DNA of 64,000 bases from an uncultured Eubacteriales bacterium (GCA_900543915.1 UQTB01000006.1:10339-74338); one strand, 5' to 3'. Counted from the first letter of the stretch, positions 9,123 through 49,176 are shown. The notes: generated from the letters alone by a model not told the origin. A program made the numbers and translations.

Positions 9123-9380
9123 GATCAATACCGGTTTAACCGGTGGTTTTGATATCCCCTATAAGGGGAAACTGCCAGCCCCGTCAACGGGTATCGCGTT
9201 TATGATAGCGCCTTATTGCCCTGCTCCCCTGTAAAACAGTTTTCTCTTATCACTTTGCAGACCTTTAACCGATGGTTGTCTTATTATTTTTTTCTTAACT
9301 CTTCCTCCGGTAAAACCGGGAAATTTTTCATACGAAAGCGCCATCAAAAACCGCGGCGCGCCCGATCGGGGCGCGCCGCG
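9123..9380 (+). repeat. Dispersed structured repeat family 2, copy A' (~260 bp)
   Basis: Shares the consecutive hairpin modules, the TGTAAAACAG core and the CCGG..AACCGGG..ATTTTTCATRCGAAAGCGC tail with 35841-36166 and 48981-49176. Hairpin 2 shows a compensatory change (CCCCTATAAGGGG versus CCCTGAAAGGG). Confidence 0.7.
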
Positions 9381-9445: not shown

Positions 9446-10360
9446 TTACAATACTTTTGACAGAAATTCTTTCAGACGCGGATCCTGCGGATGGTCAAAG
9501 AACGCATTGGGCTCGTTTTCTTCCTTGATCTTCCCCTCGTCCATAAACAGAACGCGGGTCGCGACTTCGCGCGCAAATCCCATCTCGTGCGTGACGACGA
9601 CCATCGTCATGCCCTCGTCCGCGAGATCCTTCATCAGCTGGAGCACTTCTCCCACCATTTCGGGATCGAGCGCGGAGGTCGGCTCGTCAAAGAGCATTAC
9701 GTCCGGCTCCATGCAGAGGGAACGAACGATGGCGATGCGCTGTTTCTGCCCGCCCGAGAGCTTGGAGGGATACTCGTCCTTTTTCTCGTACAGCCCGATG
9801 CGCTTCAAAAGCTCTTCCGCTTTTTTCTCCGCCTCCTCCTTGGTCTTCAGCTTCAGCTGGACGGGTGCCAGCGTCATATTCTGCAGGACGGTGAGATTGT
9901 TGAAGAGATTGAAGTGCTGAAAAACCATCCCCATTTTGCGCCGCGCGACGTTGATATCCACGGAGGAACTGCGGTAGAGCTCCTTCATCGCGAGGCGGTA
10001 CTCCTTTCCCTCGTGCTTTTTCAAAAGATCTTCCTTTTTGATCTTTCCGATGATTTCGCCGCGCAATGCTTCCGGATCGCTCCTGTCTTCCGCGGCCTCC
10101 CACAACGCGCGGTAGGTGTTGGATTTTTCGATGATATCGAAATGCAGGTAGGGATCGACCGGCGTCAGCAGCTGCCCTTCCATCCACACTTCGCCGTAAG
10201 TGGGGAATTCCAGGAGATTCATGCACCTTAAAAGCGTGGACTTTCCGCTCCCGGAGGGGCCTATGATGACCACCTTCTCCCCCTTTTCAATCTTGCAGGA
10301 GACGCCCTTCAGCACTTCCAGCTTGCCGAAATACTTAAAGATATTGTCAACGATTATCAC
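9446..10360 (-). CDS. Amino-acid ABC transporter ATP-binding protein (GlnQ family) with a ~60-aa insertion between Walker A and Q-loop
   Basis: [50 protein letters not shown]. About 95 aa separate Walker A from the Q-loop, against roughly 35 aa in typical GlnQ. Confidence 0.85.
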
Positions 10361-25693: not shown

Positions 25694-26004
25694 GCAAACA
25701 CCTCCGATCACAATAAAAAACACCCGAACAGTAACGATACTGCCCAGGTGGTCGGCGATACGCCGTCTGCTCCCCCGCGGTTATCTCCGCCCATCCACCG
25801 GTCACAGACGACGGCGCCCTGACGGGCGCTATCTGTTCATTTGTCTTTTCCCGTTCAGTATAACGCCGATCGCCGAAATTGTCAACTGTTTTTTCGCGGA
25901 CAAACGGAAATTTCTTTTCCCCCGCCGGCGCGCCTTGTTTCGCCTTTTAAAAAATGCCGGCCGATTATTTTTTGATATTTTTCGGATTATTTTTAAAAAA
26001 GGGA

Positions 26005-31627: not shown

Positions 31628-33631
31628 ATGAAACGAATCAAACTAGTCAGCCTGATCCTGGCGATCGCCGTCATGACGGCATGTGCGGCCAACGTCTACG
31701 CCGCGCCGCTGAGCGATTACAAGCCGTCCTTCGCGGATTCCGTGATCGACGGGATCGGCATCACCCAGGCGGGCGAATCGGGGGGCGGCGTCATGCTCGA
31801 ACAGTACGCGCTCTCCACGCAAAATCTCTCCGCGGCAAAGTCGCTGATCATCCGCTACTACAACCCCACCGGCGCGGCGTGGCCCTTCTATCTCATCGCG
31901 CAGCAAAGCGGTGCGCTCCTCAACCCGGCGGACGGCACCGAATATCGGCTTTACGACGATTCTTTCGCGCTGGTCGAAACCGGGACCGTGCAGTACGGCG
32001 CCGTCGCGCCCGCCGCCGCAGCCGCCGGGTATCTCGTGATCCCCGCCGCGGCATTCGGGGCGCTGGGCACCGTCGAAGCGCTCTACCTCACGCTCCCCGC
32101 GGCAGCTCCGGAGCAGATCGGCGTCACCGTTCTGCACTTCGGATGGATCGGGTATTACGAGTCGGAGACGCCCGATTTCGCGACAGATTATCGGGTGCTC
32201 ACCGATTTCTCCACGTGGACGGAGGCGTATTTCGCGGGAAGAGCCACCGATCCGGCCGGCGCGGCGCTCTCCATCGTCAAGAGCACCCTGGACAAGAACG
32301 CGACGCTCTCCGGCATGATCGACGGCGTACAGATCACGCAGGTCGGGTTTCCCGGCACGTATGCGGAGGCAGGTCTGATGATCAACCGCTTCGAGACGGC
32401 GGAAGGAACCTTTGCCGACCTCAAAGACGTCACCTATTTCGCCTTTGAATACGCGAACCCCCTCGGGCGCACAGCGCTCATCAAGATGCAGGACGCCGCC
32501 GGTACGCAGGCGACGATCGCTGAGAAGTCGGAGATCACCTTCCTCGACCGTAATTTTGAAAATCCGCGCGTCGTCAGTCAGGCGGATCCCTATATGCGCA
32601 CGGATACAGGGAGCGGCTGGATGATCGTGCCCCGCACGGCGTTTACGGGGCTCGGAGATACGCTCGCGGCGTGCTATCTCCTGCTCAACGCTTATGACGC
32701 GTCCCTGAACGGCTCCGCGATCCAGTTCGGCAAGATCCTTACCTATCGGGGAGAAATTGCCGATTACACAGCGGGAGAGGTCATCGCCGATCCCTATTCC
32801 TGGTCCCTCACGGACTACACCGCCCGCCTGGCAACGACGTCGCAGAAACCCGTCGTACAGATGGCGCGCGTCCAATCTGCGCCGCTGATCGAAATTCCCA
32901 TCGCCTGCGATTTCGGCGACGTGCGGATTCTGGAGGATTTCTCCGCCGGCTACAGCGAAGACGAAGCGGAATACAACGCCGCCATGGCGGGAAAGATCTA
33001 CGACAAGGTCGGAGGGCTCACGGTGGCGCGCAGCGCTTCCGAATACGGAACGGCGCTCAAAGTAACCGTGACGGAGCCGAAAGCAGACCGGCCGGACGAT
33101 TATGCGGGGCTTACCTTCGCCGCCAAAGCCGCTGTCAACCGCTGGACGCGCTGGAAGAACGACGAGGATTCGCTCGAGGGCGTCACGCTCTTTTTCTCCA
33201 ACCGATCGGACATGGAAATTTCCTTCAGCTTTGAAATCGATGAATTCGACCCCGATCAGAATCTGTCGGAAAACCCCAGCGGAGAACGCTGGAGCGTGGC
33301 GCTGGGCGCGCGCGTCATTCTCTACGATACCGTAAAAGAGCAGCAGTCCCTCGTTCACGCTACGCCCACCGTCAATATTCCCGCAGGGTTTACCGGCTGG
33401 GTTAGGATCCCCGTAAGCGGATTCAAGAAAGCGGCATGGTGCACCTGGGGCAATTCCGTACTCGACCTGACGAACGTACCGCAGTTCACCCTGGCGTTCA
33501 ATACGCAGATCAATCTCGGCGCGGAATTCGTTTTGGACAGCATCGGGCTCTACTATAACAAGACCGTCGTCAAATCCATGTTCCGCGACAACGGCAGCTC
33601 CTTAAAGGACAATATGGAGGCAGGAAAATGA
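31628..33631 (+). CDS. Large secreted protein of unknown function (667 aa), probable glycan-binding or surface protein
   Basis: Signal peptide (MKRIKLVSLILAIAVMTACAANVYA). No catalytic motif recognised; coding periodicity and operon context support it as real. Confidence 0.6.
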   Translation: MKRIKLVSLILAIAVMTACAANVYAAPLSDYKPSFADSVIDGIGITQAGESGGGVMLEQYALSTQNLSAAKSLIIRYYNPTGAAWPFYLIAQQSGALLNPADGTEYRLYDDSFALVETGTVQYGAVAPAAAAAGYLVIPAAAFGALGTVEALYLTLPAAAPEQIGVTVLHFGWIGYYESETPDFATDYRVLTDFSTWTEAYFAGRATDPAGAALSIVKSTLDKNATLSGMIDGVQITQVGFPGTYAEAGLMINRFETAEGTFADLKDVTYFAFEYANPLGRTALIKMQDAAGTQATIAEKSEITFLDRNFENPRVVSQADPYMRTDTGSGWMIVPRTAFTGLGDTLAACYLLLNAYDASLNGSAIQFGKILTYRGEIADYTAGEVIADPYSWSLTDYTARLATTSQKPVVQMARVQSAPLIEIPIACDFGDVRILEDFSAGYSEDEAEYNAAMAGKIYDKVGGLTVARSASEYGTALKVTVTEPKADRPDDYAGLTFAAKAAVNRWTRWKNDEDSLEGVTLFFSNRSDMEISFSFEIDEFDPDQNLSENPSGERWSVALGARVILYDTVKEQQSLVHATPTVNIPAGFTGWVRIPVSGFKKAAWCTWGNSVLDLTNVPQFTLAFNTQINLGAEFVLDSIGLYYNKTVVKSMFRDNGSSLKDNMEAGK

Positions 33632-34734
33632 AAAAGATTACGATAATGGCATTTCTTCTGGCGTTCGTTCTCGCGTTCGGCGCGTGCGAAGAGCCCCAGA
33701 ACAACGCGCCCGTTTTGCGGAATCCCGAGGGTACGATCTCTTACCTCTTCCCCTCGTATGAAGGTTTTTATTACGAAGCACCCTCTGTTCTGACGGAGGA
33801 AAACCGCTTGGTCGTCAGCTATACCACAAACGCGACCGGGGGCTCCGAAGACAGCGTGATTGCCGTCCGCACGGCGGCAAAGAGCGGCTCCGCCTGGGAC
33901 TTTTCGGCAGAGCCCTCCGTCGCAGTCGCGCCCTCTGCGGACGGATGGGACAAATACAACGTCGGCAACGGCGACATCGTTGCAGGGAGCTTCACCTACC
34001 GGGGAACGGATTACTCTTATCTGATGGCTTATGAAGCGAGTCCCGCCGCCGCGGAAAAGCGTTTTTCCGTAGGGCTCGCCGTCTCTTCCGACCTGAAAAA
34101 CTGGGAGAAGGTGGGAAACGCCCCCTTCCTCTCCTATGATTACGAGACGTACGGCGACACCGCCGGGATCTGCTATCCCAGCCTCGTCAACCTCAACGGA
34201 AAAGGCAACATCCTGCTCTTTTATACCTACGCCTCCTCTACCGTGACCGAAACCAGGTTCGTAGAGGCAAATCTCTCCGACCTCGATCATCCCGCCGTAT
34301 CGGGCAGCATCTCCGTCGCGCACGAGGGACTTCCCCTGGACGGCAACGAGTGGGCTGTCGTGACGAATGCCGATTTCGCATACGACGCGGAAACGGATGA
34401 AATCTTCATCGTCAAGGACGGTTTCCCCTATGCCGCGCAGAACGCGCAGAAAGCGACCAAAGTCGAGATCGCCAAAATCGCGCTCGAATCTCTCTACGCG
34501 CAGACGGCGCGCTGGACGCCCGTCTGCTCGATCGTGGACGAATTCGTCGCGGGCGGGTACTCCCGCATCTACTCCGCGGCGTTCGTCTCCGACGCATGCG
34601 CATGGATTGCGGGCGAAGAAGTTTCCATCGCGTTCACCTCGGGCGTCGCGCAGAAAAACGCCGAAGACAAGACATGGATCCACAGCCCGGGCATCCATCT
34701 TCTCTCCATCGAAGCTGCACTGCGGGAGGACTGA
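33628..34734 (+). CDS. Lipoprotein, probable 5-bladed beta-propeller glycoside hydrolase (GH43/GH130-clan-like); paralog 1
   Basis: Lipobox LAFGAC. Shares FxYRGTDYxYLMAY and VGLAxSxDL blocks with the next gene, resembling beta-propeller furanosidase blades. Family assignment is tentative. Confidence 0.55.
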   Translation: MKKITIMAFLLAFVLAFGACEEPQNNAPVLRNPEGTISYLFPSYEGFYYEAPSVLTEENRLVVSYTTNATGGSEDSVIAVRTAAKSGSAWDFSAEPSVAVAPSADGWDKYNVGNGDIVAGSFTYRGTDYSYLMAYEASPAAAEKRFSVGLAVSSDLKNWEKVGNAPFLSYDYETYGDTAGICYPSLVNLNGKGNILLFYTYASSTVTETRFVEANLSDLDHPAVSGSISVAHEGLPLDGNEWAVVTNADFAYDAETDEIFIVKDGFPYAAQNAQKATKVEIAKIALESLYAQTARWTPVCSIVDEFVAGGYSRIYSAAFVSDACAWIAGEEVSIAFTSGVAQKNAEDKTWIHSPGIHLLSIEAALRED

Positions 34735-34737
34735 CCG

Positions 34738-35826
34738 TTGAAAAAATTGATCGCGCTGATCGCTTCCCTTCTTTTCCTTCTGCCGGCAGCGGGCGGCTGC
34801 GCCCCCGACAAGCCGGAAGAGAGTCCGGGCAACAACCTCCCCTTCGACGAACCGCTGGAACATGCGTTCAACTACTGTCCGTCCGTCATACAGGAAGAGG
34901 ACGGCACGCGTTACGTCTATTACTGTGCCAACAAGGTAAGCGGCGTCATTCAGGATCATATTTATTGCAGAAAGGGCACCGTGAACGCCAAAGGCGGATA
35001 CAGCTGGTCGGAAAAAACGCTGGTGCTCGCCCCCACGTTCGGCAACTTCGACGCCTTTCACTGCTGCGACCCCACCGTCATCGAGGGAGCATTCCGCTAT
35101 CGCGGCACAGACTACAAGTACCTGATGGCGTACACGGGCAACACCTCCAACATCAACAACAAAGTCGGGTTGGCTTTTTCCAACGATCTGATGTCCGGCT
35201 GGGTCAGCATGGACGAGCCCTTCATCACGTACGACGGCGACAAAACCCATTGGGGCGTCGGTCAGCCGGCACTGCTGTCCGTAGACTGTCAGGGCACGGT
35301 GCTGCTGCTTTACGCAGTCGGCGGCACCGCTACGTACATGAGGGCGGAAACATGGGCCCTGTCCGATATGTCCGAGCCGAAACGGCTCGGCGCCGCGCAG
35401 ATCACGCACAGGGGCCTTACCTCTCTCACCGGCGGAGCGGACTACCTCAACAACGCGGATATCGCCTTCGATCCCGCCACCCGGCGCTATTACTTCGTGA
35501 GCGACTGCCACCCTTACCCGACGGACGGCGATCCGCTCTTCGTGTCCGACTCCTTCCGCGTGACGTATCTCGGCGAAGCGGGCGGGATCGGCGACCTGTT
35601 TGAGAGCGCGCTTTCGCAGGCGGGAAAATCCTGGATGAATCTGGCCACCGTGGGCGAAGCGGAAACGGGTTTCAAGCGCAACAGCAACTGCGGCATCGTG
35701 AGAGATTCCTTCGGATATCTGCCGAATCCGGACGAAATCGAAATTCTGTATTCGATGAGCGAACTGGGCGGGCAGTACGAATGGACTTACCGCATTTACG
35801 CCCACACTCTCTCGATTGAAGAGTAA
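34738..35826 (+). CDS. Lipoprotein, probable 5-bladed beta-propeller glycoside hydrolase (GH43/GH130-clan-like); paralog 2
   Basis: Lipobox AAGGC; CCDPTVIEGAFRYRGTDYKYLMAY and VGLAFSNDLMSGW blocks. Family assignment is tentative. Confidence 0.55.
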   Translation: MKKLIALIASLLFLLPAAGGCAPDKPEESPGNNLPFDEPLEHAFNYCPSVIQEEDGTRYVYYCANKVSGVIQDHIYCRKGTVNAKGGYSWSEKTLVLAPTFGNFDAFHCCDPTVIEGAFRYRGTDYKYLMAYTGNTSNINNKVGLAFSNDLMSGWVSMDEPFITYDGDKTHWGVGQPALLSVDCQGTVLLLYAVGGTATYMRAETWALSDMSEPKRLGAAQITHRGLTSLTGGADYLNNADIAFDPATRRYYFVSDCHPYPTDGDPLFVSDSFRVTYLGEAGGIGDLFESALSQAGKSWMNLATVGEAETGFKRNSNCGIVRDSFGYLPNPDEIEILYSMSELGGQYEWTYRIYAHTLSIEE

Positions 35827-35840
35827 CAGGCACCCCGGCG

Positions 35841-36166
35841 CAATCAAAACCACCGGTAAAACCGGTGGTTTGCACATACCCTGAAAGGGTAACCCAGCCG
35901 CCCCGTTAACGGGTATCGCTTTTACTATAGCTTCTTATTACACTACACATCTGTAAAACAGATTCTTTATTTTATTATCGAACTGTATTAACTTTAACTA
36001 TAAGGTTACTTTTTTATTATCGAAATTTGCTCAAGCAATTTTTTATCTTCCCCCGGTAGAACCGGGGGATTTTTCATGCGAAAGCGCATTCAAAACCACC
36101 AGTTAAACTGGTGGTTTGCACACCCCCTAAAAGGGTAAGCTGCCGGCTCACCCGTTAAAGGGTACT
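35841..36166 (+). repeat. Dispersed structured repeat family 2, copy B' (~325 bp), with the three-hairpin module present at both ends
   Basis: 5' module AAACCACCGGTAAAACCGGTGGTTT / CCCTGAAAGGG / CCCCGTTAACGGG is repeated at 36090-36166 as AAACCACCAGTTAAACTGGTGGTTT / CCCTAAAAGGG / ACCCGTTAAAGGG. The changes are compensatory and preserve the stems. Confidence 0.75.
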
Positions 36167-36399
36167 GAATTTGGCAACGCATCACTATCTCCGGCAGCCG
36201 CTATGTCGTGGCTGTCTTTTTTTTGCCTTATTTACTCTTTATACCCGTGAACGGGTCTATGTACTCACTTATGCTGATTTGGTCGCGCGTATAATCTTCT
36301 TCCAACTGTTTCTTTATATACTCACTTATTACTCTCTCGTTACGCCTTACCGTAATAAGCCGTAATTCTGAAATAGTTTGCCATAATGATTTCCTCCTT

Positions 36400-37731
36400 T
36401 TAAGCGGCAAGTTTTTTGATGGTACGGTTGGCGTAAGGCAGCCAAACTTTGTTGACGTAATGCAAAATTTCTTCGTCCGGCGTTTTATTGTACGAAGCAT
36501 AGCATTGCAGTACTTTGTGTGTTCTGAGCGAGTATTCGAGCGTTACGAGCGGTTTTTCCGGTCTGTCCTTTGCGCGGATAAAGAAGATGAGCGATTGCTC
36601 CTGTGCAAACCGCTCGTCGTACTGCATTCGTCCCACGCAGTGGTGCATGAGTTCGCCCTCACGGATCAGGTCGGCGGGCGATCTTGCAATGATGCAAATG
36701 AACGCGCTCCGCTTGTTGTGCTGCAAGGGAGAATACTTTTCGGCAACTTCGGAAAACTTCTGCATCAGCGCCTGCTTTTTGCCCGCTTCTTCGAGCGCCT
36801 TTTTCTCCGCGTATTGCTGCGTGCGCAGGTCGTGGGAATAGGTAAAGTCTTTCGGAAACAGGTTGCATTTCAAAGTCATATCGATACCGAGCATTTTGCA
36901 AGCGTTCAGATAATCGAGATACAGCCGGTCGGAAACATTGTTCTTTTCGGTGTAATCAAAATACTTTTTGAGTTCAAAGCCTTGGAACAGCTCGCGTATG
37001 GGCGCCGTGCCTGCGTCCCGTTCAAACTGCTTTTTACGGAAGAGGAAGTGACCGACTTCCTTCAAAGGCAGTCCCGTTTTATACGCCTGCGTGACCGTCG
37101 TAAAGTTGTAAGAGTTGCCATACGGAAGAGCGAGTTCTTCTCTGCTGCGGGCGATCCATTTGCGGAATGCTTTGTCTTTGGCGATTTTTTTGAGCAGAGA
37201 ACGGTTTTCCGCATAAGCGCCCAGACCGAGCTTTAAGAGATATTCCGTCTGCGGGTACTGTTCGTATATCCGAAGGTAGTTGATAATGTCCCTGCCTTTG
37301 TAGAGCTGATAGGCGCTGTACCTGTATTCGGGGAATTTGCCGACTACGTCTCGATTGATGAGCATTGCGTAGGGATCGTAATATCTGGTATCCGCGGCAT
37401 ACCATTTGCCGTCCTCGAATTGTTTCTGCTGCGATTGCAGCTCCTCCGCATACCAGCCGACGCGAAAGCCGTGACCGAGATAGCTGTATTCCATATCGCG
37501 GACAAAGCAGTATTTGGAATGTACGCCGTGAACGGCAACTTGCTTGCAAGCCCAGTGTTTGTTTTTGATATTCGTAACGGCGACGGTCACTTTTACAAGC
37601 TCCTTTTTCCATACGGTCAGATAGGCGTAATAGCGCACCGTGTTTGTCTGCCAAGGCTCGATTTTCAGATCGCGCTTGTAGATGGAGTCCATAATGTATT
37701 CGGGAATGGGTTTGATGTCTTTTTCTGTCAT
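36400..37731 (-). CDS. PcfJ-like protein (conjugative-element / prophage-associated family)
   Basis: 443 aa. The C-terminal region LIREGELMHHCVGRMQYDERF matches the conserved HC-containing motif of PcfJ-domain proteins. Family recalled from memory, not searched. Confidence 0.6.
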   Translation of the reverse strand: MTEKDIKPIPEYIMDSIYKRDLKIEPWQTNTVRYYAYLTVWKKELVKVTVAVTNIKNKHWACKQVAVHGVHSKYCFVRDMEYSYLGHGFRVGWYAEELQSQQKQFEDGKWYAADTRYYDPYAMLINRDVVGKFPEYRYSAYQLYKGRDIINYLRIYEQYPQTEYLLKLGLGAYAENRSLLKKIAKDKAFRKWIARSREELALPYGNSYNFTTVTQAYKTGLPLKEVGHFLFRKKQFERDAGTAPIRELFQGFELKKYFDYTEKNNVSDRLYLDYLNACKMLGIDMTLKCNLFPKDFTYSHDLRTQQYAEKKALEEAGKKQALMQKFSEVAEKYSPLQHNKRSAFICIIARSPADLIREGELMHHCVGRMQYDERFAQEQSLIFFIRAKDRPEKPLVTLEYSLRTHKVLQCYASYNKTPDEEILHYVNKVWLPYANRTIKKLAA

Positions 37732-37736
37732 AGTTT

Positions 37737-38738
37737 TTACCTCAATGTAATTTCATTGCCGAACAGTTCGTCCAGAACGGCGAGTGCTTTCGTGTGAAAG
37801 GCGGAAAGGTCTAAATCGGGTTCGTCTTCCGAAAGATCGGGTTCTTCGATGTCGCCGTCAAATTCGCGCATCTGCGCTTCGGAGAGTATCTCGCCCGTTT
37901 CTTCGTCGATCTGTTCTTGCGGTCGTTTTTCGATAGCGCGAACGTCGTCGGGCGTTTCGCATACCGCCAGCTTGTAGCCTTTTTCCGTCAGTCGGTTTAT
38001 GTAGTTATCCGCCGCGTGGTACGGAAAGCCGATCATCGGCACGCGCTCTTTCAGTCCGCAGTCCCGCCCCGTAAGGGTAAGATCGAGTTCTTTTGCAAGC
38101 CTCACGGCATTGTCGCCGAATACCTCGTAAAAGTCGCCTAAACGGTAGATTACAACGCTGTCGGGATATTTCCTTTGTATATCCTGATAATTTCGGTATA
38201 AAGGCGAGCCCGCAGGCTTCGGCTCTTGAACTGTTTTCTTTTCTTCCTCGGCGAGTTCCGCGAGGATCTCCTGTATTTCTTCCTCGGTCGGCTCGTCGTC
38301 CTCGCATTCTTCGGAAGGCGTATTCTGCGCAGGCTCGTCCAAAAGGTCGAACATCGACATCTGCGGTTTCGGCTGCGGCTTGGGCGGTGTCTGTTTTGGC
38401 GCAGGAGTTTTCGGAACGGGCTTTTTGTATTCCTTGCCGTCCTCGGTATAGAGCGTGCCTTCGATGCTGTCCTCCTCGAAATAATGTACCGCCCAGCCGA
38501 ATACTACGCTGTCCTCGATGCACGCCGACGATGAACCTTTCTCGGCTTGCTTCCTCGCTTCGTCACAGGCGTACTGCATAAAGCCGTCCAAAGTCTTTTT
38601 GCTCAAAAGCGTTTTGCCGTCTTTTTCAATGCGCACGTCGTTGTTAATTTTCTCGGCGAGGATTTCACTGACGTTTTCTTCAAGATACTGTTTCACAAGT
38701 TCCTGTGAATTCGTTTTCGTTTCAAGATTGAGTTTCAT
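37737..38738 (-). CDS. Fusion protein: N-terminal PcfK-like domain + acidic/Pro-rich linker + C-terminal MutS domain I (mismatch-recognition domain) homolog
   Basis: Residues about 165-245, SPLYRNYQDIQRKYPDSVVIYRLGDFYEVFGDNAVRLAKELDLTLTGRDCGLKERVPMIGFPYHAADNYINRLTEKGYKLAVCE, align position by position with E. coli MutS 11-95 ([49 protein letters not shown]...[28 protein letters not shown]), including the GxFYE Phe/Glu mismatch-contact motif. No ATPase domain is present. Confidence 0.7.
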   Translation of the reverse strand: MKLNLETKTNSQELVKQYLEENVSEILAEKINNDVRIEKDGKTLLSKKTLDGFMQYACDEARKQAEKGSSSACIEDSVVFGWAVHYFEEDSIEGTLYTEDGKEYKKPVPKTPAPKQTPPKPQPKPQMSMFDLLDEPAQNTPSEECEDDEPTEEEIQEILAELAEEEKKTVQEPKPAGSPLYRNYQDIQRKYPDSVVIYRLGDFYEVFGDNAVRLAKELDLTLTGRDCGLKERVPMIGFPYHAADNYINRLTEKGYKLAVCETPDDVRAIEKRPQEQIDEETGEILSEAQMREFDGDIEEPDLSEDEPDLDLSAFHTKALAVLDELFGNEITLR

Positions 38739-40211: not shown

Positions 40212-40300
40212 TGGCGGAGGCTGAGGGATTCGAACCCCCGTGGGCTTTCACCCAAACGGTTTTCAAGACCGCCTCGTTATGACCGCTTCGATAAGCCTCC
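40212..40300 (-). tRNA. tRNA-Ser (anticodon UGA)
   Basis: Reverse complement reads GGAGGCTTATCGAAGCGGTCATAACGAGGCGGTCTTGAAAACCGTTTGGGTGAAAGCCCACGGGGGTTCGAATCCCTCAGCCTCCGCCA: anticodon loop CTTGAAA, long variable arm, TTCGAAT T-loop, encoded CCA. Closely parallels E. coli tRNA-Ser(UGA). Confidence 0.85.
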
Positions 40301-47771: not shown

Positions 47772-48785
47772 TCACTCCATATCGGGGTCTTTCCAGCCGG
47801 ATACTTTCCCCATCACGTACGTGCCGTCGCAGAATAGATCCACCCAGTAGCGCGTCTTCTCCTCCCCCATCAGCTCGCCGTTCTCGTTGCAGCCGTCCCC
47901 GCACATGACGAGGGGATAACCGTAAAGCCCTTCGATTGCGGGCGAAGCGCCGACCGCCAGCTTGCTGAAGACGATCATCCCGCGGTCCCCCGCCTTCCAC
48001 GTATCCTTGGGAAAATTGACGAGAATCATCTGCGTGAAATCGCGCGGCTCGGAATAGAGATAGATCTGATCGGGCTCCGCGTCCAGTATGGGCGAGCCGG
48101 CGGAGACCTGTACGATCTCCATCGCGCTGTTCAGCCCCGCGATCGCGCCGGAGAGCTCGCTCTCGGTCACGAATCCCGCAATGTCTTCCGCCGTCGCATA
48201 ACCGCTCAGATCGTCCGCCGTGGCGTAACCTGTCAGCTCCTCTTTGGTCGCAAGCGCCGAAAGTTCGCTCTTTTGCGCGTACTGCTCCAGCTGCGACTCC
48301 TTCACGTATTCCGAAAGGTCGGGCGCCGCCGCTCCTCCCAGCTTTTCCTCCACAAACGCTTCCATTTCGGCGCGCTTTACGTAGCCCGCCAGCTGTTTTT
48401 CCACCAATGCCATAAAATCCTCCCTCGTTTCGTATTCCGCCCCCGTCAGCGAAGGGAGCACGTCCAGCGTAAAGACCTCCGTCTGAAAGACGAAGTCCTC
48501 TCCCTCGAACACGACCTGCATTCTGAGCGGCCCCGCGACCGCGGTCTGCTTTTTGTCGATCTTCCAGTCAAACCGGACGGCCGTTTCGTCCGCGCTCTTT
48601 TGCAGGGGCACTTTTTCCGCGTACCAGTCCGACCGCAGGAATTTCATGAAAGCGGAAGCGGCGGAGAGATCCAGCGCCCCGTATGCGCGCGCGCATTCAA
48701 AGGTGATCGTATCTCCGCCGTCATCCCCGCGAAATACCCGGACCGGAGGCAGCTTTACCGTTTTTTCATTGATATTTGCCGTCAT
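47772..48785 (-). CDS. Orphan phage tail-like protein: BppU-family N-terminal domain + coiled-coil/repeat stalk + C-terminal putative receptor-binding domain
   Basis: True start MTANINEK at 48785 with AAGGAG RBS. The N-terminal ~120 aa follow the BppU_N pattern (VRVFRGDDGGDTITFE...DLS...FMKF.RSD......L......V.F...I.....AG.L..QVVFEGEDFVFQTEVFTLDV); then tandem LSxYxxxxEL/GYAT repeats. The ORF-track extension runs into repeat copy C'. Confidence 0.55.
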   Translation of the reverse strand: MTANINEKTVKLPPVRVFRGDDGGDTITFECARAYGALDLSAASAFMKFLRSDWYAEKVPLQKSADETAVRFDWKIDKKQTAVAGPLRMQVVFEGEDFVFQTEVFTLDVLPSLTGAEYETREDFMALVEKQLAGYVKRAEMEAFVEEKLGGAAAPDLSEYVKESQLEQYAQKSELSALATKEELTGYATADDLSGYATAEDIAGFVTESELSGAIAGLNSAMEIVQVSAGSPILDAEPDQIYLYSEPRDFTQMILVNFPKDTWKAGDRGMIVFSKLAVGASPAIEGLYGYPLVMCGDGCNENGELMGEEKTRYWVDLFCDGTYVMGKVSGWKDPDME

Positions 48786-48980
48786 ATAAAACTCCTTTCC
48801 GGCGCCTGCCCGTGTCGGCGCCTTACCCTTACAGTATAACGCCTTTTTTCCCCGCCGCAAGGGGGATATGACAGCCGGAAGGAAAAAAACCGAATTTTTG
48901 TCCGACAGCCGCTGCGGATGCGCGCAAAAAAAACGCCGGTGCGGCCGGCGGATATGCGTAAACAGGCTGTCAGGCGGGTG

Positions 48981-49176
48981 AATCAAAACCACCGGTAAAA
49001 CCGGTGGTTTGCTCATACCCTGAAAAGGGAAAATACCAGCTGCCCCGTCAACGGGTATCGCTTTTACTACAGCGTCTTATTGCTCCACACACCTGTAAAA
49101 CAGGTCCCTTATTCTATTATCGAACTGTATTATCTTAACTATGTTGAACCGGGGAATTTTTCATGCGAAAGCGCCG
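48981..49176 (+). repeat. Dispersed structured repeat family 2, copy C' (~195 bp)
   Basis: AATCAAAACCACCGGTAAAACCGGTGGTTTGC...CCCTGAAAAGGG...CCCCGTCAACGGGTATCGCTTTTACTACAGC...TGTAAAACAGG...TTATTATCGAACTGTATTA...AACCGGGGAATTTTTCATGCGAAAGCGCC, collinear with copies A' and B'. Confidence 0.75.

Follow-up and report, generated by a model that had tools for sequence, protein, structure and literature searches.

What kind of sequence is the hairpin-rich repeat that recurs between the genes of this DNA? The initial annotation of the window (the whole stretch of DNA that was analysed, 64 kb in length) described an intergenic element in three copies, with base changes that preserve three consecutive hairpins, and left it between a MITE-like mobile element with structured ends and a family of small structured RNAs. 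All of the sequence features quoted there are present in the window. Comparison with the wider family leads us to conclude, with a probability of about 90%, that the copies are non-autonomous, gene-less (MITE-like or PATE) derivatives of insertion sequences (ISs) of the IS200 group, IS200/IS605 family. The repeat is real, but it belongs to a common type of mobile DNA and represents neither a new RNA nor a new system.

The three copies all lie on the minus strand (Table 1), and two conserved blocks of the repeat occur three times each in the window, against 0.06 and 0.18 occurrences by chance in shuffles. Profiles made from the wider family and then run on the window with nhmmer recover four pieces, the three short copies and a fragment at 36088-36354, and no others. 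These profile and block searches bear out the count of three copies but not the end given for the 9-kb copy, which is 9343 instead of 9380. The sequence at 9352-9380, previously taken as part of the repeat, is the host gene's own terminator hairpin, a 12-bp GC stem followed by GTTTTTGA, and lies directly ahead of the element's left end. The 49-kb copy carries an internal deletion that takes away most of the left-end hairpin and is matched by nhmmer in two pieces (model positions 89-250 and 2-46). The copies at 9 kb and 49 kb are degenerate and have probably lost their mobility.

Table 1. Predicted features of the repeat copies and of the neighbouring DNA in the window.
Feature	Position	Strand	Length	Details
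Complete short non-autonomous IS200-derived element	35842-36088	minus	247 bp	
Left-end subterminal hairpin (IP_L analogue)	36049-36069	minus		TCCCCCGG-TTCTA-CCGGGGGA on top strand
Right-end terminal hairpin (IP_R analogue)	35850-35868	minus		CCACCGG-TTTTA-CCGGTGG on top strand
Right-end hairpin H2	35878-35890	minus		
Right-end hairpin H3	35901-35914	minus		
Diverged short element	9123-9343	minus	221 bp	nhmmer E=4e-33
Host intrinsic terminator of ABC-transporter ATPase gene (9446-10360, minus)	9352-9380	minus		Insertion target
Degenerate short element	48981-49176	minus	196 bp	
5'-truncated IS200-like insertion sequence	36088-36354	minus		Right end and tnpA remnant
ZMP/ZTP riboswitch (pfl motif)	25735-25815	minus		51.7 bits vs gathering score 39
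PcfJ-like protein	36400-37731			
PcfK and MutS-domain-I protein	37737-38738			
tRNA-Ser	40212-40300	minus		

The middle copy is a complete short element. It matches positions 3-250 of the short-element profile (nhmmer, E=3.8e-70), is 86-87% identical to loci L007 and L012, and has its left end (LE) at 36088 and its right end (RE) at 35842, the top strand being the minus strand of the window. An AAAA "guide-like" tract stands directly before its left-end hairpin, and its right-end terminal hairpin is followed by the tail TTTTGATT (35849-35842). The hairpin module that had been noted at both ends of this copy belongs instead to two tandem elements, since at 36088 the complete short element abuts a truncated IS200-like copy. 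This second element comprises a three-hairpin right end (36088-36165, running on to about 36230) and, at 36231-36354, the last 35-41 codons of tnpA, to which residues 119-153 of the Monoglobus TnpA align (tblastn, 36353-36249, E=2e-11). The segment 36090-36354 is 88.7% identical over 266 bp (blastn) to the 3' part of the full-length element in locus L118, a match that breaks off abruptly at 36354, and 36088-36354 matches positions 479-747 of the full-IS profile (nhmmer, E=1e-68). The tnpA remnant and the L118 match therefore identify the second module as the right end of a 5'-truncated IS200-like copy. Right after the tnpA stop codon lies a further conserved hairpin (36193-36216 in plus-strand coordinates, GACAGCCGC-loop-GCGGCTGCC), which occurs in full-length elements with compensated variants (among them GAGCCCCC...GGGGGCT and GACAGCCAC...GTGGCTG) and is absent from the short ones.

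The affiliation with the IS200 group comes from relatives whose ends enclose a gene. When plasmids were searched for distant similarity, the extra hairpin module alone was matched; in Ruminococcus albus pRUMAL01 and a Monoglobus pectinilyticus replicon it lies ~60 nt downstream of the stop codon of tnpA, which in both is annotated as an IS200/IS605 family transposase. Upstream of the plasmid tnpA, the sequence shares homology with the opposite end of the repeat (TGGGGTCTTTAGACGTGGAAAAAAACCTTCGGTTCTACCGGAGGAAGATAAAAAGCTTTAGC cf. TGCGCTTTCGCATGAAAAATCCCCCGGTTCTACCGGGGGAAGATAAAAAATTGCTTGAGC). No similarity to the repeat was found in a phage collection. We then scanned metagenomes for the terminal hairpin, obtaining at least 120 loci, and located left ends by blastn-short. 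Among the matches listed, elements with both ends fall into a short class of 246-271 bp (21 cases) and a long class of 735-801 bp (11 cases), and one assembly, ERZ1643249, contains both. The short class has no conserved ORF and no transposase gene. The long class encodes a ~155-aa protein with a match to Pfam Y1_Tnp (E=3e-39) and, in the PDB, to solved TnpA structures of Sulfolobus, IS608 and ISDra2 (IS608 TnpA 2a6m, E=6e-23; 2xm3, E=6.5e-20), with which its HUH motif (PDHIH) and the helix of the catalytic tyrosine (SEYIK) can be aligned.

The two classes have their ends in common. Positions 1-65 of the short element are 94% identical to the full-IS left end in locus L140, and positions 172-250 match a full-IS right end with an identity of up to 97.5% (L005 vs L067), so that the short element consists of ~65 bp of left end, a ~105-bp spacer and ~80 bp of right end. 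Each end thus has its homologue in elements encoding a Y1 HUH TnpA, as in the IS200 group; the lack of a transposase gene, the small size and the multiple dispersed copies characterize a non-autonomous element. The idea of a MITE-like element with structured ends, which the sharply defined ends, the unrelated flanks and the numerous copies across other genomes support, becomes precise with these tnpA-carrying full-length relatives. The central ~105 bp has no counterpart in the full-length elements detectable by blastn, and a simple internal deletion is therefore not proven for that part; the resemblance of the spacer's CCTGTTTTACAGG to the CCCGTTTACGGG hairpin of the tnpA C terminus is only suggestive. 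Neither the 64-kb window nor the 8-kb loci around short copies (4 kb on either side) contain an intact tnpA, so that a transposase acting in trans within the same genome is presumed rather than seen.

Other members of the family vary in their interior. In locus L102, an element of 437-441 bp has its left end joined straight to the middle of tnpA (residues from ~84 onward) and keeps its right end; it is an independent deletion derivative, and internal deletions of the IS arise repeatedly. Full-length elements of ~795 bp (L023, L089, L092 and L136) carry an extra ~50-bp insert in the 5'UTR of tnpA, hairpin-forming by eye (for example, GAGCGGAGC...GGCGAGGCGAATGCCAAGCCGAAAGACTTT), which the 740-bp copies lack.

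The same relatives bear on whether the copies belong to the REP/REPIN repeats, which are mobilised by REP-associated tyrosine transposases (RAYTs). These enzymes are Y1 HUH proteins related to TnpA, and REPs form hairpins in intergenic DNA, frequently beside gene ends (PMC3333891, PMC3337134). However, the element is 250 bp long with two different ends, not a palindrome of 20-40 nt or an inverted doublet, and these ends are homologous to those of 740-800-bp elements, which flank a classical IS200 tnpA as the sole gene. Moreover, a RAYT is normally single-copy and REP-flanked, whereas here an IS200-type tnpA is multi-copy and lies inside the element, and copy number in the window is low. We consider a REP/RAYT system very improbable. 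The adjacency to tnpA and the two size classes also led us to drop a tracrRNA-like tail, a retron ncRNA, an integron attC site, an IS110 bridge RNA and a TnpB omega-RNA. The DNA next to the copies contains neither cas genes nor a reverse transcriptase, an integrase or tnpB.

The distribution of the family is that of a dispersed element. With each species represented by one genome, a scan for the exact pattern yielded 20 loci, in MAGs of uncultured Clostridia and in Candidatus Borkfalkia avistercoris. Aligned with 60-nt flanks, these 20 loci have sharp boundaries and wholly unrelated flanks, as do at least 120 metagenome loci, indicating that this is a dispersed element and not conserved intergenic DNA. 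Many copies are at contig ends, where repeats that break assemblies would be expected. Full short copies occupy at least 21 unrelated sites, several MAGs have two or three matches, and short copies at different sites in MAGs of different species are 98-100% identical; the copies in the window have diverged further, their identity not exceeding 87%.

Copy number also differs within the species. Contig k141_67645 of ERZ27283147 runs colinear with the window. In three representative places from other assemblies, found by exact match to the flanking proteins, the 9-kb locus has either two tandem copies between the host terminator and a glycosyltransferase gene (L144, L145) or, like the window, a single one (L146). 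The left part of the single copy corresponds to the upstream copy of the pair and its right part to the downstream copy; the single copy is a chimera left by recombinational collapse of the tandem dimer. In the dimer, the copy beside the terminator is the better preserved, a pattern consistent with one terminator having been hit repeatedly. No polymorphism was seen at the 35-kb locus in the single further place shown, of two contigs with the flanking protein, and the 49-kb locus had the same layout in the three representative places shown, of 24 contigs read. The XRE-type protein beside the 49-kb copy has no exact match on record elsewhere.

If the repeats were immobile, as duplicated terminators or as intergenic DNA that simply diverges, degenerate copies would be no surprise, and two of the window copies are indeed degenerate; the unchanged 49-kb layout in the three representative places shown also agrees with such immobility. 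Yet more than 30 distinct sites have flanks that bear no relation to one another, the ends are sharp, copies in MAGs of different species are nearly or fully identical, and the 9-kb copy number is polymorphic. The prospect that only three copies exist, as ordinary diverging intergenic DNA with no covariation, is contradicted by the dispersal just described and by the covariation of the hairpins, and we give immobility next to no credence. Instead, the IS200-type element and its gene-less derivative appear, from the sequences compared, to have been recently active in this lineage of gut Clostridia.

We turn to the hairpins, whose conservation had been read as selection on structure. The top strand of the short element forms a single hairpin at the left end, ~21 nt from the boundary, and three at the right end; the last of these is similar to the one at the left. 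Their patterns, both on the minus (top) strand, are CCCCC(A/G)G-TTCTA-C(T/C)GGGGG at the left end and CCACC(A/G)G-TTnAA-C(T/C)GGTGG at the right end; subterminal hairpins that are alike and in the same orientation on one strand thus take the place of terminal inverted repeats. Modelled as single-stranded DNA, the short element folds with z=-6.1 and the IS right end with z=-4.2 relative to shuffles. The compensatory changes claimed for three hairpins within the window hold for the first (CCGG/CCGG vs CCAG/CTGG) but not for the second and third, where the quoted differences are mostly changes of loop or stem length. Across the wider family, on the other hand, many two-sided changes are found in all three right-end hairpins and in the left-end hairpin.

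In a structure-blind MAFFT alignment of 43 distinct right ends, standard pairs fill 90.2% of cells, compared with 78.2% in shuffles (0/500 reach the observed value), and two-sided changes fill 104 cells vs 35.8 in shuffles; slid controls, with partners moved by 1-3 columns, are only 30-47% paired. The outer right-end hairpin is largely fixed by the search pattern, and its one free pair is A-T in 32, G-C in 10 and G-T in one of the 43. H2 and H3 each occur in ~20 distinct, fully complementary stem variants across the family. The left-end hairpin, in 20 left ends, is 95.7% paired vs 89.7%, with two-sided change at 4/7 pairs. Selection on the hairpin structure, and not just on sequence, is therefore confirmed, as expected for single-strand ends that are bound by TnpA: the hairpins covary because the transposase reads the shape of a hairpin rather than the sequence of a duplex. 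H2 and H3, the extra covarying hairpins of the right end, are kept in the short elements and might serve some purpose of their own, in RNA or in DNA, that lies outside the IS608 paradigm.

Covarying hairpins are also what a family of small structured RNA genes, for sRNAs or cis-regulatory RNAs, would have. The three hairpins would then be RNA helices, and the last would terminate a minus-strand transcript of ~90-200 nt; a terminal hairpin followed by TTTT does resemble an intrinsic terminator on that strand. The 5'UTR and an antisense RNA of the Salmonella IS200 are known to act as sRNAs (PMC4513863, PMC5435999), and the structure of H2 and H3 is conserved although the IS608 paradigm assigns them no role. 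Nevertheless, an RNA family is unnecessary for explaining the covariation, which is expected in any case of single-stranded DNA hairpins recognised by a TnpA of the IS200/IS605 family, and transposition accounts for the end homology with tnpA elements, the two size classes and the distribution of sites. Mismatches in the right-end hairpins show no excess of G-T over A-C (12 vs 11), such as G-U pairs in an RNA strand would leave, and do not reveal which strand is structured.

Searches for RNA signals point the same way. At gathering score, Rfam 15 finds only a tRNA and the ZMP-ZTP riboswitch in the whole window, both away from the repeat, in agreement with the earlier statement that nothing in it matches a known tRNA, riboswitch or rRNA; at E<=10 over the locus, the best scores are 14-31 bits against thresholds of 47-208, none of them close. 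The AT-rich segment that had been likened to promoter elements finds no support from consensus scans, which detect no convincing sigma-70-type promoter inside the copies. The ORFs starting MCKPPVLPVVLI (33553-35877, minus) and MSKPPVLPVVLI (47772-49016, minus) begin inside the terminal hairpin and, as the initial annotation supposed, are mechanical artefacts. An RNA family is, in our judgement, unlikely, though the element may be transcribed in addition, and the reading as IS200 derivatives is retained.

Where do these elements insert? At 26 of 30 distinct sites, short and full-length elements alike sit 0-10 nt downstream of a terminator-like hairpin with a T-run, a position common to both classes and to both plasmid copies. 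At these 30 sites we folded the 45-nt flank that precedes the left end and the flank that follows the right end: left flanks reach -15 kcal/mol or below in 26/30 cases vs 3/30 for right flanks, with mean energies of -21.0 and -6.5 kcal/mol, respectively (Wilcoxon p=1.6e-7). The left flanks are typical intrinsic terminators, often with an A-run ahead. Their last seven bases read TTTT-W-W-T, directly before the TGG that starts the left end, and position -4 is T in 26/27 sites, a degenerate consensus that is confounded with the T-runs of the terminators. The right-end tail is GATT in 86 of the 119 distinct right ends among the matches listed.

No consistent target-site duplication and no fixed duplication length were found at the 30 sites; over 30 boundary offsets, the best match between flanks is 2-3 nt in 19/30 sites, the level expected by chance for T-rich flanks. 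A classical MITE derived from a DDE transposon was rejected on this ground and on the lack of terminal inverted repeats, the only inverted similarity between the ends being the two hairpins, which are themselves palindromic. Joined flank pairs had no match among all fetched loci, so that no empty site was recovered; the junctions are therefore known only to within 1-2 nt, and we infer mobility from the distribution of the copies. Two short copies (L005 and L020) have an atypical left junction, gtcgatttagg[c/a]ta[a/g] then ATAC/GTGC-GCTTTAGC, without a terminator hairpin; they may have inserted into another repeat, or their left tip may be rearranged.

Class C group II introns, too, insert immediately behind intrinsic terminators and share their orientation. 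The repeats could accordingly be remnants of such a terminator-targeting retroelement, or of another terminator-associated element, and their own position and orientation agree with this. A length of 250 bp is, however, far too small, Rfam gives no match to an intron or ribozyme even at E<=10, and the enzyme encoded by the full-length relatives is a Y1 transposase rather than a reverse transcriptase. We consider an origin from such a retroelement extremely remote.

The position behind terminators is instead a known tendency of the family to which we assign the elements. A 2026 survey found terminator-like sequences over-represented just upstream of ISs, most of all for IS200/IS605 (PMC13548323), and the general pattern is already known from that work. 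What the present family adds is a resemblance between the target (A-run, hairpin, T-run) and the element's own right end (CAAA, hairpin, TTTTGATT), which would account for tandem arrangements, such as the pair that meets at 36088, and for new copies beside older ones. It is possible, though we hold this tentatively and think it less probable than its opposite, that the target is chosen by structure and not by a fixed 4-5-nt word, TnpA taking any terminator with an A-run, a GC hairpin and a T-run as a mimic of the right end and joining the left end 7-8 nt after the foot of the hairpin. If true, such targeting explains the near-universal post-terminator position, the reuse of sites and the tandem arrays. 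Alternatively, the association with terminators could in part reflect the survival of harmless insertions instead of targeting.

Starting from the end homology, hairpin conservation, site preference and copy-number polymorphism observed above, the steps of movement can be proposed by analogy with IS608 and ISDra2. TnpA proteins bind subterminal hairpins and use pairing between guide and cleavage-site sequences (PMC5934647). In the present case, a Y1 HUH TnpA supplied in trans by a full-length copy would bind the two subterminal hairpins on the single-stranded top strand (the window minus strand) and would cut the left end ahead of TGG and the right end behind GATT. The top strand would be excised as a circle and pasted 3' of a short T-rich (tetranucleotide) sequence in single-stranded target DNA, which would leave no target duplication. 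The four bases 5' of the hairpin feet (AAAA/TAAA at the left end, CAAA at the right) appear at the position of the IS608 guide sequences and could pair, the left tract with the T-rich target and the right one with the GATT tail. The expected orientation for insertion places the top strand on the lagging-strand template (PMC5027513), and the top strand lies on the G-rich strand, the one predicted to have that orientation, in 4/4 window copies, a number too small to carry weight.

Several features of the neighbouring DNA deserve mention. The segment 36355-40200, between the truncated IS200 copy and tRNA-Ser, has a lower GC content (0.43-0.50 vs ~0.56 around it), encodes a DUF6809 protein in addition to the PcfJ-like and PcfK proteins, and resembles part of a conjugative or integrative element; we saw no integrase in it, and a second contig, from a gut metagenome (L143), has the same arrangement. 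A gene for a 337-aa protein (47772-48785, minus), which lies between asnS and the 49-kb copy, has a weak, sub-threshold match to BppU_N (E=7e-4, 19.7 bits vs a cut-off of 23.1), the N-terminal domain of a phage baseplate upper protein. In a MAG locus (L004) whose asnS-homologous region is 79% identical to the window, a short element lies ~200 bp from the end of that region; this spacing suggests that the 337-aa gene may be an insertion specific to the lineage of the window.

The family is of practical interest for annotation, as its copies make spurious ORFs and break metagenome assemblies at contig ends, and its clean covariation means that the copies could be mistaken for a new structured RNA. 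The post-terminator position adds an example at the level of sequence to the published statistical finding on IS200/IS605 and suggests a mechanism by mimicry of the right end.

Among known systems, the full-length relatives are closest in anatomy to IS200 of Salmonella and IS1541 of Yersinia. They are of similar size (740-800 bp), have a single tnpA (Y1 HUH) and lack both terminal inverted repeats and target duplications; likewise, a terminator-like hairpin lies ~20 nt in from the left end, and the ribosome-binding site is paired within a stem (in Monoglobus, for example, ATCTCCATGATATA...TATATCATGGAGGAT). The anatomy of IS200, including a bidirectional terminator at the left end, has been described (PMC4513863), and the left-end hairpin of the present family corresponds to that terminator. 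The differences are that the short copies of the window have no tnpA, that the host lineage is one of uncultured Clostridia, and that the right end has three or four covarying hairpins.

IS608 of Helicobacter pylori and ISDra2 of Deinococcus radiodurans have in common with the family a homologous TnpA, subterminal hairpins at both ends on one strand, and a 4-nt tract 5' of each hairpin foot, from which guide pairing is suggested here. Unlike them, the present family has neither tnpB nor omega-RNA, and their fixed TTAC/TTGAT target contrasts with a degenerate TTTT-W-W-T beside a hairpin. REP/REPIN-RAYT systems are similar in that hairpin repeats, between genes and near terminators, are handled by a Y1 HUH enzyme; REPs, however, are much shorter and far more numerous and do not have distinct left and right ends.

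The short copies themselves most resemble in design the palindrome-associated transposable elements (PATEs) and other MITEs derived from IS200/IS605, which consist of ends only. A 271-nt PATE-like element is known from Halanaerobium hydrogeniformans (PMC7290912), and IS200/IS605-derived PATE/MITEs occur in Haloquadratum walsbyi (PMC3119063). Like the present elements, PATEs are 200-300 bp long and combine a left-end hairpin with several hairpins at the right end, and their mobilisation is taken to occur in trans. They derive from IS605-type elements (tnpA and tnpB) and keep part of tnpB, whereas the family found here would derive from an IS200-type element with tnpA only and joins its two ends through a spacer of ~105 bp.
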